From a virus (taxonomy: Duplodnaviria > Heunggongvirae > Uroviricota > Caudoviricetes), in IMG/VR virus record IMGVR_UViG_2802429240_000009, positions 1-26,735 of that record: a stretch of DNA of 26,735 nt. One strand, written 5' to 3'. Shown here piece after piece: positions 1,961-8,568 of the stretch; within the stretch, counting starts at the first letter, position 1; each line of letters opens with the position of its first letter. Made by a program: the position numbers and the translations under genes. The notes beneath the pieces were generated by a model. It searched no databases, was not told the DNA's origin, and saw only the letters and a list, made by a program, of their open reading frames with translations.

Positions 1961-1985
1961 ATAAAAAAGGAGCCTGTAGCTCCCT
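1961..1985 (-). terminator. Weak candidate intrinsic terminator downstream of the DGQHR gene (minus orientation)
   Basis: On the minus strand a GGAGC/GCTCC stem (1969-1983, 5-nt loop) is followed by a U-tract (A-run 1963-1968 on the plus strand). The stem is short. Confidence 0.3.
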
Positions 1986-2060: not shown

Positions 2061-3125
2061 TTAAGTTGATTCCAGACTTCCTTTGGTAAAAGCTTGTATC
2101 AGTCTGTTTGCTGCTGCTTTCTGCGCTGCCACATTGGCAATAACAGATAGTTTTTCCTGGCTGGCTTTCGTGCAGATCCCCGCCCAGTTATCCATCAGAA
2201 AAAAATCCTCTCTTTCTGCAGAGCTGGTAGTTGCACATAGTTTTTCGATCATAGAAGTTATTTCTGCGATGGAATGATTAACCATCATCTGTTGAACCGC
2301 AAAACCGAAAGCGTTAATCATTACTCCATGGAACTGAATATAATCGCGCTTGTACGTAGCGTGGTGTACACCATGTCGGATTGAGTCAATCTGAGTTAGT
2401 GTAATCCATGCCTCCCAGACAGATTCTATATATCCCATTTCAAGTTGTTGATTGCCGTTCCTGGCGAACTTTGACGTTGCATCAGTGAGTGCCTTGAAAC
2501 TCACCCACATATTACTTTTTAATGGCACTACGTTGTGTTCAAAATCGGTTATATCGGCAAATACAGTATGTTGGGTCAGGAAGGATATCATTCCCTGAGC
2601 AATATCATCCCGGCCGTTATACGCCATATTGATGGTCGCTGATGGCTTAGAAACGTTGTTATTTATGTCCGAAAAGAACTGCTGCCGGGTTTTTAGCGGC
2701 AGATTCATTGTAAGCATCATGGGAACCATGAGCGTTGATGGGGAACTTCGGCAAAATATCTCAATGCCAGCTGCACGATGTTGACCATCAAAAAGTTTTA
2801 TTTCGGCGTCGAGGGGAATTCTGGCTATACCAACATTTGTGTTGCCAAACGGTACAAATTCTATATTCGAATCACAGTTACCTACGAGAGGGGGAATGAT
2901 AAAAGGCTCATTTCTTGAGTCTGCGTTAGTGAGATAATTTAAAAATTTTCGTACTCGATTTGGATTAATTTCTCGCTGAGAGCGTTCCAGTGTATGGCCG
3001 TAATTATCTGAAGCGAGGAAACGAGCCAGCGATCTTCCTGGTATGGTAAGGAAGAGTGTAACAGTACCACCCTGTACACCTTGCGATGCCGGAAATTCGA
3101 ATGAATGATTACCAACCTGACTCAT
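2061..3125 (-). CDS. DGQHR-motif protein (DndB-like, ParB/sulfiredoxin-fold superfamily), 354 aa; accessory gene
   Basis: The literal motif IKLFDGQHRAAGIEIF is present in the protein. AGGAGG lies 7 nt upstream of the ATG. The gene sits where lambda carries its dispensable orf63/orf61/ea22/ea8.5 genes. Confidence 0.7.
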   Translation of the reverse strand: MSQVGNHSFEFPASQGVQGGTVTLFLTIPGRSLARFLASDNYGHTLERSQREINPNRVRKFLNYLTNADSRNEPFIIPPLVGNCDSNIEFVPFGNTNVGIARIPLDAEIKLFDGQHRAAGIEIFCRSSPSTLMVPMMLTMNLPLKTRQQFFSDINNNVSKPSATINMAYNGRDDIAQGMISFLTQHTVFADITDFEHNVVPLKSNMWVSFKALTDATSKFARNGNQQLEMGYIESVWEAWITLTQIDSIRHGVHHATYKRDYIQFHGVMINAFGFAVQQMMVNHSIAEITSMIEKLCATTSSAEREDFFLMDNWAGICTKASQEKLSVIANVAAQKAAANRLIQAFTKGSLEST

Positions 3126-3280
3126 ATATCCTCCTGTTTATTATTTATCTTCTCAGCCAGCCGCTGTGCTTTCAGTGGATTTCTGATAACAGAAAGGCCG
3201 GGAAATACCCAGCCTCGCTTTGTAACGGAGTAGATGAAAGTGATCGCGCCTACCCGGATATTATCGTGAGGATGCTTCAT
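3122..3280 (-). CDS. Small early-left ORF (52 aa) translationally coupled to exo and to the DGQHR gene
   Basis: Its ATG overlaps the exo stop (ATGA) and its TGA overlaps the DGQHR start (ATGA). Translation is [52 protein letters not shown]. It resembles, from memory, the small lambda ORF just downstream of exo. It is below the ORF-track size cutoff. Confidence 0.4.
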
Positions 3281-3957
3281 CGCCATTGCTCCCCAAATAC
3301 AAAACCAATTTCAGCCAGTGCCACGTCCATTTTTTCGATGAACTCCGGCACCATCTCGTCAAAATTCGCCATGTACTTTTCATTCCGCTCAATCACGACA
3401 TAATGCAGGCCTTCACGCTTCATACGCGGGTCATAGTTGGCAAAGTACCAGGCATCTTTTCGCGTCACCCACATGCTGTACTGCACCTGGGCCATGTAAG
3501 CCGATTTTATGGCCTCGAAACCACCGAGCCGGAACTTCATGAAATCCCGGGAGGTAAACGGGCATTTCAGTTCAAGGCCGTTGCCGTCACTGCATAAACC
3601 ATCGGGAGAGCAGGCGGTGCGCATACTTTCGTCGCGATAGATGATCGGGGATTCAGTAACATTCACGCCGGAAGTGAATTCAAACAGGGTTCTGGCGTCG
3701 TTCTCGTACTGTTTTCCCCAGGCCAGCGCCTTAGCATTAACTTCCGGAGCCACACCGGTGCAAACCTCAGCCAGCAGGGTGTGGAAGTAGGACATTTTCA
3801 TGTCAGGCCACTTCTTTCCTGAGCGGGGCTTTGCTATCACGTTGTGAACTTCTGAAGCGGTGATGACGCCGAGCCGTAATTTGTGCCATGCATCATCCCC
3901 CTGTTCGACAGCTCTCACGTCGATCCCGGTACGCTGCAGGATAATGTCCGGTGTCAT
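3277..3957 (-). CDS. exo: Lambda-type 5'-3' exonuclease (Red alpha), 226 aa
   Basis: Near-identical over its full length to lambda Exo as recalled ([43 protein letters not shown]...). Confidence 0.95.
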
Positions 3958-4739
3958 GCTGCCACCTTCTGCTCAGTGGCTTTCTGTTTCAGGAATCCAA
4001 GAGCTTTCACTGCTTCGGCCTGTGTCAGTTCTGACGATGCGCGAATGTCGCGGCGAAATATCTGGGAACAGAGCGGCAATAAGTCGTCATCCCATGTTTT
4101 ATCCAGGGCGATCAGCAGAGTGTTAATCTCCTGCATGGTTTCATCGTTAACCGGAGTGATGTCGCGTTCTGGCTGACGTTCTGCAGTGTATGCAGTATTT
4201 TCGACAATGCGCTCGGCTTCATCCTTGTCATAGATACCAGCAAATCCGAAGGCCAGACGGGCACACTGAATCATGGCTTTATGCCGTAACATCCGTTTGG
4301 GATGCGACTGCCACGGCCCCGTGATTTCTCTGCCTTCGCGAGTTTTGAATGGTTCGCGGCGGCATTCATCCATCCATTCGGTAACGCAGATCGGATGATT
4401 ACGGTCCTTGCGGTAAATCCGGCATGTACAGGATTCATTGTTCTGCTCAAAGTCCATGCCATCAAACTGCTGGTTTTCATTGATGATGCGGGACCAGCCA
4501 TCAACGCCCACCACCGGAACGATGCCGTTCTGCTTATCAGGGAAGGCGTAAATTTCTTTCGTCCACGGATTAAGGCCGTACTGGTTGGCGACGATCAACA
4601 ATGCGATGAACTGCGCATCGCTGGCATCACCTTTAAATGCCGTCTGGCGAAGAGTGGTGATCAGTTCCTGTGGGTCGACAGAATCCATGCCGACACGTTC
4701 AGCCAGCTTCCCTGCCAGCGTTGCGAGTGCTGTACTCAT
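3954..4739 (-). CDS. bet: Lambda-type single-strand annealing protein Bet (Red beta), 261 aa
   Basis: Near-identical to lambda Bet ([68 protein letters not shown]...). Its stop overlaps the exo start. Confidence 0.95.
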
Positions 4740-4744
4740 CCGTT

Positions 4745-5041
4745 TTATACCTCTGAATCAATATCAACCTGGTGGTGAGCAATGGTTTCAACCATGTACT
4801 GGATGTGTTCTGCCATGCGCTCCTGAAACTCAACATCGTCATCAAACGCACGGGTAATGGCTTTTTTGCTGGCCCCGTGGCGTTGCAAATGATCGATGCA
4901 TAGCGATTCAAACAGGTGCTGGGGCAGGCCTTTTTCCATGTCGTCTGCCAGTTCTGCCTCTTTCTCTTCACGGGCGATCTGCTGGTAGTGACGCGCCCAG
5001 CTCTGAGCCTCAAGACGATCCTGAATGTAATAAGCGTTCAT
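4745..5041 (-). CDS. gam: Gam, RecBCD inhibitor (98-aa short form)
   Basis: Matches lambda GamS ([21 protein letters not shown]...[10 protein letters not shown]). The upstream frame does not continue into the long Gam N-terminal extension. Confidence 0.9.
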
Positions 5042-5116
5042 GGCTGACCTCCTGAAAATGGCTGTGAAAATATCGCCCGCGAAATGCCAGGCTGATTAGG
5101 AAAACAGGAAAGGGGA

Positions 5117-5407
5117 TTAGTGATTCAGGCCGTTACCGCGTCCGTCGAGAAAAACTTCCACGAGCAAATCACGGGTATAAGTGCGCTCGATGCCGCGATG
5201 CAGATAAAGCCGTCCGCGTAAATTAGCTGATGCAGTCCAGGTACCATCTTTGTGTTTGACCAGCATTCCTGGCATGACCGCACCTCGATTAACGGTCTGC
5301 GTTCCATAATGTTGATGAACCATAAAAACTCCTGCCCGTAAGCTGGGCTGCTGAACATATAGAGACTTCTGCGCGTATTCAGGCGGTGGATGGCCGCCGG
5401 TTGTCAT
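5117..5407 (-). CDS. Hypothetical protein (96 aa), first ORF downstream of pL
   Basis: ORF occupying the position of N/cIII/kil in lambda, but with no arginine-rich motif and no recognisable family. An alternative 77-aa frame overlaps it (5125-5358). The ribosome-binding site is weak, so coding status is uncertain. Confidence 0.3.
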
Positions 5408-5600
5408 AACTAAGCCGCCTCGTTGAAGCGACTAAGGTATGAAATGTTGAGTTAATTTCAGCTGGTCACACCGACGTTCACGCGTCCGTTTCACCCCTCG
5501 CACTCCCCGAAGCCTGCTGAAATTCAAACTGCGGATCTAAGCGGTCATCGCAACGGTGAATCAGGTAGTTGCCGTATCGTTGTGTTGTTGCGATGAACTT

Positions 5601-5643
5601 ATTTAAAACTATAGTTGTTTTATCGTCAACAACAAAAGTTGTT
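5601..5643 (-). promoter_or_regulatory. pL-like promoter with operator-like dyads (OL)
   Basis: In minus orientation: -35 TTGACG (plus 5624-5629), 17-nt spacer, -10 TTAAAT (plus 5601-5606). The spacer carries AAAACAACTATAGTTTT, differing by one base from the element in the pR spacer. A second dyad, AACAAC-AAAA-GTTGTT (5628-5643), overlaps the -35. Confidence 0.5.
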
Positions 5644-5770
5644 TTATTGGTTGTTTTAGATATAACTGGTTGTATTTAGGATGGATTTATTTTGTGACTT
5701 GAATCGCATAGCGATAACTGAAGCGAGGTTATGGTGGTTTTTTTAACGGTGTGTGTGATGAGGGGAGGGC

Positions 5771-5797
5771 AAAAGAAAACCCGGCACGGTGACCGGG
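5771..5797 (-). terminator. Intrinsic terminator downstream of cI
   Basis: In minus orientation a CCCGG-UCACCGUG-CCGGG stem-loop (plus 5780-5797) is followed by UUUUCUUUU (plus 5771-5779). It lies about 120 nt after the cI stop. Confidence 0.55.
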
Positions 5798-5918
5798 ATT
5801 CTTACGCCGTTAGGTAAAGATATTATTGCGGTGGCTTAATATTACTACCTAGAGCAAAGATAGGAATTAGTTCTTTACTGAATGAGCACAATGCCCAGTT
5901 GATAATTTTTAATTGGTA

Positions 5919-6608
5919 CTACCCATGCTTCCTATATGTCTGCGGCATGCTCCCAATAACCTTACCGAAGATGAACACCCGGTTCATCTCGTCTTTCTCG
6001 ATCGGGTCCCACGGTGAGTAGCTTTTGTTATCAGAGATGACCAGCAGCTTATCCTTCATCATTTGCAGGCGCTTTACATGGGCTGTGTCGTCGTACAGAA
6101 ACGCATAGATACCATCACCGTCGAAAGATTTAACTGTGATATCAACGAACAGCAGATCACCTGGTTCGATCGTTCCTGACATGCTGTCACCACGCACGTT
6201 AATGATGCGGATATTTTCCGCCTTCCTACCATCGAACATGTGACGAGCATCGTCAAACGAGTACTCAACCGAGCGTAGAACTTCTACAAACTCACGGTTG
6301 ATGACTCCCGGCCCAGCACTGACTTCTATATCAAGAACGTCAATCTTGAAGTATTTGGAATGGCTGACAGTTGATTGTATTGGTTGCACTGTACTGTCTG
6401 ACATATTTCCAACGCCAGAAGATAACCATTCTGCGCGCACACCCAAAGCGTTCGCGATCTCCACGATTTTAGTTGTTTGATTAGCTTTCCCTGTTTCGAT
6501 TTTCTGAATAGCAGCCTGGCTAACCCCGACCAAATCCCCAAGCGCCTTTTGTGTAAGGCCTCGCGCTAATCTGGCTTCTTTAAGTCTTTCTGAGAGTGTT
6601 GTTTTCAT
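5919..6608 (-). CDS. cI: CI-type prophage repressor (N-terminal HTH plus C-terminal S24 LexA-like autopeptidase), 229 aa
   Basis: HTH region LTQKALGDLVGVSQAAIQKIETG, and Ser/Lys dyad context (VRGDSMSGTIEPGDLLFVD ... AHVKRL). The start at 6608 is preferred over the ORF-track start at 6674, which would overlap the pR -35 and operator. A pRM-like -10 lies 6 nt upstream, so the transcript is probably leaderless. Confidence 0.8.
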   Translation of the reverse strand: MKTTLSERLKEARLARGLTQKALGDLVGVSQAAIQKIETGKANQTTKIVEIANALGVRAEWLSSGVGNMSDSTVQPIQSTVSHSKYFKIDVLDIEVSAGPGVINREFVEVLRSVEYSFDDARHMFDGRKAENIRIINVRGDSMSGTIEPGDLLFVDITVKSFDGDGIYAFLYDDTAHVKRLQMMKDKLLVISDNKSYSPWDPIEKDEMNRVFIFGKVIGSMPQTYRKHG

Positions 6609-6614
6609 AGTCCA

Positions 6615-6685
6615 AATGTACAACCAAGGTTTTATTCCATCAAACGAAAATGGTTGTTGACTAAAAACAACCATAGTTTTAATCT
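6615..6685. promoter_or_regulatory. Divergent pRM/pR promoters with operator dyads (OR)
   Basis: pR on the plus strand: -35 TTGACT (6657-6662), 17-nt spacer, -10 TAATCT (6680-6685), then GGAGG and the cro ATG at 6713. pRM on the minus strand: -35 TTGATG (plus 6638-6643), -10 TACATT (plus 6615-6620). A perfect 9-bp-arm palindrome ATGGTTGTT-N7-AACAACCAT (6650-6674) overlaps the pR -35, and AAAACAACCATAGTTTT (6664-6680) fills the pR spacer. Confidence 0.6.
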
Positions 6686-6712
6686 TGATTCAAATTAACC
6701 ACGGAGGTTGTT

Positions 6713-6943
6713 ATGAACCCAGCTATCAAAACAGCGATCAATATCGTTGGTTCACAAAAGAAACTGGGCGCTGCTTGCGAAGTTTCACAGCAGGCCGTCT
6801 ATAAGTGGCTTCACAACAAAGCAAAGGTATCCCCTGAACATGTCGGCAGCATTGTTACGGCTACTGGTGGAGTAGTGAAGGCATACCAGATTCGCCCGGA
6901 TCTTCCGAAGTTGTTTCCACACACCGAAAAGAACGCAGCTTAA
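6713..6943 (+). CDS. cro: Cro-like / YdaS-family HTH regulator (76 aa)
   Basis: Small HTH protein (KKLGAACEVSQQAVYKWLHNK) transcribed divergently from cI immediately downstream of pR. Confidence 0.7.
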   Translation: MNPAIKTAINIVGSQKKLGAACEVSQQAVYKWLHNKAKVSPEHVGSIVTATGGVVKAYQIRPDLPKLFPHTEKNAA

Positions 6944-7012
6944 ATTTCCATTTCACGCTCTTTAACAATAAGCAATCAACTTAACAGTCAATTCAAACTA
7001 AAGGAGTCAATT

Positions 7013-7552
7013 ATGCAACCACTTACATACCAACAGACTAGCGGATTTAGCCCGACTGCGGTGATAAATCGTTCTCAAACAAAACAGGTGCCAGGCCACG
7101 AAAAAATCCGTGATGCCGTCCGCGCCTGGTCGGCTGTAGATAATCAGGATGTCGTTGCCACACTCATTGTGAATGAGTATCGGGAGCAGGGCGGCGGCAC
7201 CATCGATTTCCCTGATGATGTCAGCCGTGCACGCCAGAAGCTGTTCCGCTTCCTCGATAACAAATTCGATTCTGAAAAATACCGAAATAACGTGCGTGAA
7301 CTGACCCCGGCAATTCTGGCGGTACTACCGCTGGAATATCGCGGTTACCTGGTTGAGCAGGATAGCTTCATGGCTAGGTTGGCTGAAATGGAAAAGGAAC
7401 TCAGTGAGGCAAAACAGGCTGTCATTCTCAACGCACCACGCCACCAGAAACTGAAGGAAATTAGTGAAGGTATTGTGTCGATGTTTCGTGTGGACCCAGA
7501 TCTGGCTGGTCCATTGATGGCGATGGTTACTACCATGCTGGGGGCGATATGA
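7013..7552 (+). CDS. cII-position protein, possibly YdaT-family (179 aa)
   Basis: ORF with AAGGAG Shine-Dalgarno between cro and O. The motif EYREQGGG resembles what I recall of YdaT-family proteins that pair with Cro-like YdaS in Rac-type immunity regions. Its stop overlaps an ATG at 7549 (ATGA). Confidence 0.55.
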   Translation: MQPLTYQQTSGFSPTAVINRSQTKQVPGHEKIRDAVRAWSAVDNQDVVATLIVNEYREQGGGTIDFPDDVSRARQKLFRFLDNKFDSEKYRNNVRELTPAILAVLPLEYRGYLVEQDSFMARLAEMEKELSEAKQAVILNAPRHQKLKEISEGIVSMFRVDPDLAGPLMAMVTTMLGAI

Positions 7553-7638: not shown

Positions 7639-8568
7639 ATGGCAAACACTGCTGAGATATTCAATTTTCCAGTGCCGGATGCGGCACAAAAGGAGCCGCG
7701 CGTGGCAGATCTCGATGATGGTTATACGCGCATTGCAAATGAGTTGCTGGAAGCTGTGATGCTGACCGGATTAACACAGCACCAGCTTCTGGTCTTTCTG
7801 GCTGTCATGCGCAAAACATATGGCTTTAATAAAAGACTGGATTGGGTGAGCAACGAGCAACTTTCCGAATTGACCGGGATATTGCCGCACAAGTGTTCTG
7901 CTGCAAAAAGCGTTCTGGTAAAGCGTGGGATTCTTATTCAGAGCGGGCGGAATATCGGCATTAATAATGTGGTCAGTGAATGGTCAACATTACCCGAATC
8001 AGGTAAGAAAAATAAAGTTTACCTGAAAGAGGTAAATTTACCTGAATCAGGTAAGAAAAGTTTACCCAAATCAGGTAAAGGCGTTTACCCGAATCAGGTA
8101 AACACAAAAGACAAACTAACAAAAGACAATATAAAACCTTTTTCGTCCGAGAATTCTGGCGAATCCTCTGACCAGCCAGAAAACGATCTTCCTGTGGTGA
8201 AACCGGATGCTGCAATTCAGAGCGGCAGCAAGTGGGGGACAGCAGAAGACCTGACCGCCGCAGAGTGGATGTTTGACATGGTGAAGACTATCGCACCATC
8301 AGCCAGAAAACCGAATTTTGCTGGGTGGGCTAACGATATCCGCCTGATGCGTGAACGTGACGGACGTAACCACCGCGACATGTGCGTGCTGTTCCGCTGG
8401 GCATGCCAGGACAACTTCTGGTCCGGTAACGTGCTGAGCCCGGCCAAACTCCGCGATAAGTGGACCCAACTCGAAATCAACCGTAACAAGCAACAGGCAG
8501 GCGTGATAGCCAGCAAACCAAAACTCGACCTGACGAACACTGACTGGATTTACGGGGTGGAGCTATGA
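7639..8568 (+). CDS. O: Replication initiator O (hybrid: divergent N-terminal iteron-binding domain, lambda-like C-terminal domain)
   Basis: N-terminus MANTAEIFNF...VADLDDGY parallels lambda O; C-terminus (AEWMFDMVKTIAPSARKPNFAGWANDIRLMRERDGRNHRDMCVLFRWACQDNFWSGNVLSPAKLRDKWTQLEINRNKQQAG...) is lambda-like. GGGAGG precedes the ATG at 7639. An alternative coupled start at 7549 exists. The gene contains the iteron array. Confidence 0.8.
   Translation: MANTAEIFNFPVPDAAQKEPRVADLDDGYTRIANELLEAVMLTGLTQHQLLVFLAVMRKTYGFNKRLDWVSNEQLSELTGILPHKCSAAKSVLVKRGILIQSGRNIGINNVVSEWSTLPESGKKNKVYLKEVNLPESGKKSLPKSGKGVYPNQVNTKDKLTKDNIKPFSSENSGESSDQPENDLPVVKPDAAIQSGSKWGTAEDLTAAEWMFDMVKTIAPSARKPNFAGWANDIRLMRERDGRNHRDMCVLFRWACQDNFWSGNVLSPAKLRDKWTQLEINRNKQQAGVIASKPKLDLTNTDWIYGVEL
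7990..8145. repeat. Origin of replication: five near-palindromic iterons plus an AT-rich tract inside O
   Basis: Iterons of consensus TTTACC(C/T)GAATCAGGTAA at 7990-8006, 8018-8036, 8037-8054, 8061-8079 and 8084-8102, followed by the A/T-rich stretch 8103-8145. This is the same architecture as ori-lambda. Confidence 0.8.

Follow-up and report, generated by a model that had tools for sequence, protein, structure and literature searches.

A conserved leader between pL and kil in a lambdoid Escherichia coli prophage without recognisable N protein or put RNA

The N/nut system of lambda and the put RNA of HK022 are the textbook routes to the delayed-early genes of lambdoid phages. How the left early operon is expressed where neither can be recognised is the question raised by the region downstream of pL in the DNA analysed here (the window), a stretch of 26,735 nucleotides (nt) representing positions 1 to 26,735 of IMG/VR virus record IMGVR_UViG_2802429240_000009, from a virus of the Caudoviricetes. 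An earlier note, made from the sequence alone, had described a pL-like promoter followed by an untranslated leader and an unknown 96-amino-acid (aa) open reading frame (ORF), and had proposed that gam, bet, exo and int are expressed either through a put-like RNA in that leader or for want of terminators. The best overall explanation, given a little under an even chance, is that an N-less and put-less lineage places a composite leader in front of a terminator-free kil-gam-bet-exo operon.

The promoter itself, proposed at about 5601-5629, was confirmed by its sequence and by the operator repeats that overlap it. The OL operators and pL occupy 5601-5647 on the minus strand, with a -35 element TTGACG (5629-5624), a 17-nt spacer and a -10 element TTAAAT (5606-5601) in sigma-70 arrangement directed leftward, and with a transcript start predicted near 5594; the -35 element aligns with the TTGACC of other immunity types. 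A 19-nt operator at 5603-5621 lies partly within pL and has an inverted copy of 95% identity at pR/OR (6664-6682) beside cro, so that the expected OL/OR arrangement is found, and a 17-nt operator repeat occurs at 5607-5623 and 5631-5647. Upstream of pL lies the intrinsic terminator of the cI transcript (5780-5797, minus strand), a six-pair GC-rich stem followed by TTTTCTTTT.

The first gene behind pL was found to be kil, which the earlier note had listed as absent. The 96-aa ORF (5117-5407, minus strand) opens at ATG 5407, and its residues 20-96 match PHROG 294, ‘Kil protein for bacterial septation inhibition’, with an E value of 1.2e-38 over profile positions 4-80 of 83, which places it in the Kil family. 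The NCBIfam KilR/FtsZ-inhibitor profile NF008465 aligns from Met29 (E 1.8e-17, positions 1-70 of 73) and covers residues 1-68 of a 68-aa Kil, in a match that scores below the NCBI subfamily cut-off of 92 bits. In RefSeq relatives the Prokaryotic Genome Annotation Pipeline (PGAP) calls a 68-aa ‘phage encoded cell division inhibitor’ from a start equivalent to ATG 5323. This ATG is preceded by an AGGAG Shine-Dalgarno (SD) sequence at 5333-5329 and stands exactly at the end of the leader match, and some relatives carry 1-nt and 2-nt deletions upstream of 5323 that break the frame. The gene is a 68-aa KilR-type FtsZ/cell-division inhibitor gene at 5117-5323 on the minus strand, and the supposed unknown early regulator of 96 aa consists of Kil and a conserved mini-ORF upstream that reads into it in frame, this lineage having lost the stop of the mini-ORF. 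Since kil starts at ATG 5323, the untranslated leader measures about 271 nt; the earlier estimate of roughly 190 nt agrees with the approximately 187 nt from the transcript start to ATG 5407, which is not the real start. The absence of cIII, ea10 and ral was upheld, as kil-gam-bet-exo directly follow pL. The deposited annotation of PhiR34_1, an Escherichia phage 100% identical to bases 5000-6000 of the window, has a 77-aa ORF in another frame at window positions 5125-5358 (minus strand) and not kil; this call appears to be a mis-call, the family matches being in the kil frame. With a KilR-family protein as the first gene product after pL, the window resembles Rac KilR and lambda Kil. It differs from the Kil loci of Citrobacter, Kluyvera, Enterobacter and Silvania in that its kil stands directly behind pL after a conserved leader, which those loci lack.

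Terminators were sought along the path of the pL transcript. On the minus strand from pL to the end of exo at 3277, only three weak terminator-like sites with stems of 5-6 bp were found, two of them inside genes, and since no strong intrinsic terminator lies in this interval, gam, bet and exo most likely need no antitermination. The suggested absence of terminators is thus supported as far as exo, but it does not extend to xis and int, which lie behind two hairpins. The first, a terminator-like hairpin just past exo (3194-3216, minus strand), is conserved in the family and falls inside a DUF1317 ORF in relatives. The second is a strong intergenic intrinsic terminator with an 8-bp stem, TTTTTATTATT (1967-1985, minus strand), likewise conserved in the family and located between the recombination block and TraR-xis-int.

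Neither textbook route was recovered. An N-family protein has about 100 aa and an N-terminal arginine-rich motif, and its gene lies just downstream of pL. No homologue of N or Nun was found by Pfam or PHROGs among the ORFs downstream of pL, and N is absent from the whole annotation of PhiR34_1, in agreement with what had been noticed at first. The window shares with lambda the promoter/operator layout, a boxA at the position of nutR and an RERR-containing micro-ORF downstream of pL, but it has no N protein, no boxB and no boxA on the left. Sites resembling nut in both early operons were not found, the two leaders sharing nothing beyond 10-11-mers, and no boxB-like hairpin is common to the left and right operons.

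The put-like RNA that had been suggested for the leader was not borne out either. RNAs of the HK022 type occur as putL just downstream of pL and as putR downstream of pR, and their read-through of terminators depends on the beta' zinc-binding domain. A covariance model (R1) was built from eight put RNAs, namely putL and putR of HK022 and those of HK639, phiEt88, CobraSix, S9-5, UPF_BP1 and PdC23, whose alignment has the expected two-stem structure with compensatory changes and the consensus GAACGGCGCG...GUCGG...GGCGGGUUCAGGAUGAACGGCAAU. The model scored 51-101 bits on known and held-out sites, recovered every training site with filters off, and recovered the held-out putR of UPF_BP1 and phiEt88 at E values of about 1e-12. 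With filters off, it found nothing at E<=10 in the window leader or after cro. Local alignment of the leader with each put was no better than with shuffled sequence, and resemblances to put seen by eye (CGGGGAGUGCGAGGGGU with CGGGAGCGCGGCGGGU, and GAAACGGACGCG with GAACGGCGCG) were rejected as chance on this shuffle-level alignment. No second copy of the leader core was found in the window, the right operon included. Rfam release 15 gave no match at gathering threshold in the whole window, and chance-level matches only at E<=10 in 5250-7100; an ops/RfaH element was not matched on the minus strand of the leader. The prophage small RNAs AgvB/AsxR and Pas were rejected as the identity of the leader, the literature on them concerning other positions. 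As a separate observation, HK639 (L219, 13911-13970) has an annotated ‘M3-like RNA’ after its YdaT-like cII gene, in place of putR, which has no obvious similarity to the window leader by eye.

What, then, is the leader? A query covering 5324-5600 matches 2231 of 5426 complete E. coli genomes, and no feature annotated by PGAP lies under the match in any of the genome matches listed from these 2231. Leader boundaries were taken from alignment across phages with different operators, in which the shared sequence starts at about 5560 (O157 type) or about 5595 (2013C-3264 type) and extends to kil. When IMG/VR was scanned with a 19-mer of the leader core, more than 100 copies were obtained, in 88 distinct variants. 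With the hairpin at 5404-5382 as the anchor, 78 loci came up in which the 3' part of the leader is present and the 5' part is not, which shows that the leader is composite.

The lineage-specific 5' part, about 150 nt from 5594 to about 5446, comprises a 5'-terminal hairpin, H1, and a conserved G-rich core, Segment A. H1 (5545-5596, minus strand; UCAUCGCAAC / GUUGCGAUGA) has a fold z of -2.6, and its 5' arm is replaced in O157-type immunity. Segment A (5446-5560, 115 nt, minus strand) stands at the position of putL in relatives and is common to at least three immunity types. Searches with blastn and nhmmer found no homologue of Segment A outside the family in the phage collection, nor elsewhere in the window, and none in the Kil loci of Citrobacter, Kluyvera, Enterobacter, Silvania and Pseudocitrobacter. 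Among 24 family loci found by an anchor outside Segment A, its nucleotide diversity (pi) is 0.023. The corresponding value is 0.143 for the kil-gam spacer, and the first, second and third codon positions of kil have 0.058, 0.057 and 0.131, so that Segment A is 5-6 times less diverse than kil third positions and the spacer; the sample anchored on the 19-mer gave a similar picture. These comparisons of sequence diversity point to purifying selection on Segment A. The loop of H1 contains TACCTGATTCA (5567-5557), an exact match to the core of the ori iterons, five 19-bp copies of the TTACCTGATTCGGGTAA type inside the O gene (7996-8110), but no second half-site; the match may be fortuitous, or the pL leader may carry one half-site for the O protein.

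The 3' part is a widespread cassette of about 120 nt (about 5445-5324, minus strand), found as a single copy per locus in dozens of lambdoid contigs of IMG/VR and in HK639, CobraSix and S9-5, and it has no Rfam family. It reads, in order, CAUACC, hairpin H3, the mini-ORF start, H4, a GCGCAGAAGUC box, an SD-proximal hairpin and the SD. H3 (5410-5436, minus strand), with a stem of 9-11 pairs ending 2 nt before ATG 5407, is a real conserved hairpin: pairing is kept in 96.2% of cells as compared with 28-52% when the partners are slid, the covariation score is 0.638 against at most 0.12, and both sides have changed in seven of 11 pairs. The mini-ORF start (ATG 5407, MTTGGHPPP) and the overlapping H4 (5398-5382) together span 5382-5407 on the minus strand, as defined by comparison of cassettes, with the sequence UUAGUU-AUG-ACAACCGGCGGCCAUCCACCGCC. 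In other phages this polyproline mini-ORF, which is putatively translated, has 16-24 codons, and among 56 distinct cassettes it is closed in frame by a conserved TAA in 42; the frame is kept in only five of 10 length classes, and in the window the mini-ORF has no stop and continues into kil. A GCCC/GGGC hairpin at 5348-5334 adjoins the AGGAG SD, the two together covering 5329-5348 on the minus strand. The most likely role of the cassette is in setting up translation of whichever gene comes first in the kil/recombination block.

Elsewhere the cassette usually lies right after a terminator and before varied genes. A hairpin with a T-run directly precedes it in at least 43 of 68 distinct contexts outside the family versus none of 26 within it, and HK639 has two terminators annotated at the cassette junction, of which the second has a copy without a T-run in the window. 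Among 77 loci outside the family, putL lies a few hundred bases upstream of the cassette in 24. Copies of the cassette were observed at L007 (3650-3770), L009 (3360-3436), L010 (2492-2566) and about 78 IMG/VR loci (L142-L218). Besides putL and Segment A, a third arrangement was seen about 110 nt upstream of the cassette in the IMG/VR loci L149, L170 and L200, consisting of a promoter/operator-like repeat TTGACTGTGGAA, a structured stretch of about 60 nt (CACGCGCCGGGCGTG...), a terminator and the cassette, with no put match. The sequence UUCAGCAG occurs twice in the window leader, at 5355-5348 near the kil SD hairpin and at 5521-5514 in Segment A, and in single-sequence and alignment folds both copies can pair with a single intervening GCUGAA (5462-5457); such mutually exclusive pairings could act as a switch.

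In the preferred explanation, transcription from pL would run through the leader of about 271 nt into kil, gam, bet and exo, which would be effectively immediate-early genes without need of N or put. The lineage would have lost its early antiterminator plus the terminator that it served, and pL would have been brought directly onto kil-gam-bet-exo. The leader would be a 5' untranslated region governing the translation or the Rho exposure of a toxic first gene. Segment A would most likely act in cis as RNA on the pL transcript, and its candidate roles, speculative as this step is, include shielding the leader from Rho and tuning the toxic Kil, for instance by the UUCAGCAG/GCUGAA pairings. Expression of xis and int would depend on leak-through, a promoter of their own or an unrecognised antitermination activity.

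Several points weigh against this explanation, which does not explain why Segment A is strongly conserved and stands where putL would be, or why conserved terminators precede xis and int. The hairpins at 3216-3194 and 1985-1967 are both conserved in the path of pL before TraR, xis and int and may argue for some read-through device, and ‘terminator-free’ refers to intrinsic terminators only, Rho-dependent ones being invisible in sequence. Segment A stands exactly at the putL position of loci L150 and L151, and its conservation exceeds what would be expected of a simple spacer; recent spread and mosaic kil alleles could partly account for its low diversity. It has no significant conserved fold in RNAalifold runs on 52-88 variants (column-shuffle z -0.9 and -0.8), and wobble-compatible polymorphisms in the leader are no more frequent than in shuffles, in an alignment of at least 93% identity that is too shallow to settle conserved structure. 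The structural check for which the earlier note had called found covariation in H3 of the cassette, but neither a put-like element nor a significant fold in Segment A. The wider proposal of the note, a new early mechanism, may hold for the leader, with a conserved Segment A at the putL position, but the ORF to which it was extended is Kil.

One alternative, considered unlikely, is that the leader has no dedicated function and is a recombination scar joining pL to the kil module, which looks conserved through recent spread in E. coli. Its copies all share an identity of at least about 93%, other genera yielded no diverged homologue, and the leader gives no structure signal. The Kil homologues of Citrobacter, Kluyvera, Enterobacter and Silvania do without it, and in Silvania L016, the one locus examined in detail, the gap between repressor and kil is much shorter, about 200 nt. 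Against a mere scar stand the diversity of Segment A, 5-6 times below that of kil third positions and the kil-gam spacer in the same 24 genomes, and its retention in phages whose adjoining immunity module has been exchanged.

Conversely, Segment A, perhaps with H1, could be a cis-acting antiterminator RNA of a new class, put-like in function but unrelated in sequence, that lets polymerase read through to xis and int. Position speaks for this reading, which we consider equally unlikely. Like HK022 and HK639, the phage of the window is lambdoid and N-less and has a non-coding element immediately behind pL. In L150 and L151, as in HK639-like contigs, pL-putL abuts the same cassette that Segment A abuts in the window. 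Furthermore, this is a phage without N and without put that has conserved intrinsic terminators in the path of pL, and Segment A is the least variable stretch of the region, kept across immunity types. On the other side, neither covariance model nor alignment relates the window element to put, the right operon carries no second copy of it, and, unlike in most put phages, it is not followed at once by a terminator; Segment A shows no statistically supported fold or compensatory changes; the support is positional. The stronger claim that 5560-5446 represents a second, structurally unrelated class of phage antiterminator RNA, making RNA polymerase or the transcript resistant to termination, is rather unlikely.

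Host Nus factors acting alone on boxA could suppress Rho-dependent early termination, as antitermination by Nus factors and boxA without N is described for rrn operons, suhB and CRISPR (clustered regularly interspaced short palindromic repeat) arrays (PMC7665894). The consensus GCUCUUUAACAA was found for pR and not for pL. A perfect boxA, GCTCTTTAACAA, lies at 6957-6968 on the plus strand, 14 nt after the cro stop at the position of nutR; it is the sole 12/12 match in the window, and an exact 12-mer at this place is very unlikely by chance. The window thus resembles the Nus/boxA systems in a lone consensus boxA, with no boxB hairpin in the sequence after it and no N, and the site may give Nus-factor protection to pR transcripts in the immunity type of the window. 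It differs from them in that boxA is confined to the right operon and to one immunity type, being present after cro in phages of the window's type and absent in the O157 and 2013C-3264 types. None occurs in the pL leader, and other matches in the window, with up to two mismatches, occur only at 17.6-17.9 kb. As boxA is absent on the left, it cannot account for the pL operon, and relatives with the same pL leader and other immunity types have no boxA, so that the mechanism is not general to the family and is improbable as an explanation.

Finally, an arginine-rich motif (ARM) is not strictly absent from every frame: a micro-ORF, MKRTRERRCDQLKLTQHFIP, runs on the minus strand from GTG 5494 to TAG 5434-5432 (5432-5494), in frame with kil. 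Of all the findings, this alone bears on the refuting condition set by the earlier note, an N-like ARM protein in an unexamined frame. It includes an N-like RERR motif, and its KRTRERRCDQ resembles the ARM core of lambda N, TRRRERRAEKQ. An SD, GGGGAG (5508-5503), lies 8 nt upstream of the GTG, which is ATG in 10 of 88 variants, and the one common polymorphism inside the ARM is synonymous. The micro-ORF spans only 20-31 codons (20 in the window), and its frame is not conserved: the stop is polymorphic (TAG in 28 and CAG in 60 of the 88 variants), a 5-nt duplication shifts the frame in four variants, 2-nt and 1-nt indels also break it, and the start is lost in one. By tblastn its homologues occur only within the family, for which reason a relic of an N gene was rejected, and there is no Pfam or PHROG match; it is probably not a gene. 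That it makes a minimal N-like ARM peptide, or an ARM-Kil fusion in CAG variants, which binds leader RNA and antiterminates is highly improbable, as 20 aa without the NusA-binding and polymerase-binding parts of N would have to serve without a boxB-like hairpin common to both operons.

The remaining genes follow a lambdoid order. On the minus strand, int (1-1164) and xis-like ORFs were assigned from the ORF map and database matches, and exo (3277-3957), bet (3954-4739) and gam (4745-5041) from the annotation of identical and related phages. A cI-like repressor with helix-turn-helix and S24 peptidase domains occupies 5919-6674 on the minus strand (Pfam Peptidase_S24, E 1.5e-18; HTH_3, E 6.5e-13), where the PhiR34_1 record annotates cI; its true start is likely MKTT... 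near 6608. On the plus strand, cro (6713-6943; ORF map and database matches) is followed by a YdaT-family gene at 7013-7552 (Pfam, E 8.5e-30), and then by O and P. The YdaT-family protein holds the cII position, a likeness to the YdaS-YdaT region of Rac and CP-933P, in which YdaS and YdaT have been described as Cro and CII analogues (PMC8630535, PMC9986795). The full annotation of PhiR34_1 includes lambda-like virion genes, a Q antiterminator and DLP12-type nin-region genes, among them an SMR efflux transporter, ybcK-ybcO and rusA. As part of the same tentative explanation, the window is taken as a DLP12/Perceval/PhiR-type lambdoid prophage with Rac-like (YdaS/YdaT) immunity and no early antiterminator protein. 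According to their records, PhiR34_1 and Perceval are plaque-forming phages with the same leader, and plaque formation by phages with this leader is also supported by PMC9928086.

Two further observations concern insertions. In relatives the gap between cI and pL, which corresponds to the position of rexAB in lambda, hosts cargo (L002, 3805-5233; L005, 2049-3650; L006, 2851-3792) such as a GevT/GevA toxin-antitoxin pair, a SIR2-family protein or a 313-aa hypothetical protein; no such cargo is present in the window. Between the terminator-like hairpins at 3194-3216 and 1967-1985 lies a 354-aa ORF (2061-3125, minus strand) that looks like a moron inserted in the pL operon, and its counterpart place in PhiR34_1 is occupied by orf61 and orf63.

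The N-less and put-less lineage is among the commonest E. coli prophages, its leader being present in about 40% of complete genomes, yet it yields viable phages. A conserved, unannotated leader element in so common a prophage lineage offers a testable experimental lead, its mechanism being putative. The cassette is a separate, uncatalogued RNA motif found at the head of the kil/recombination block in many phages. Should the left operon merely be free of terminators, a large share of lambdoid phages could do without early antitermination; should Segment A be active, a new RNA device would be at work, either on transcription or on the expression of a toxic division inhibitor.

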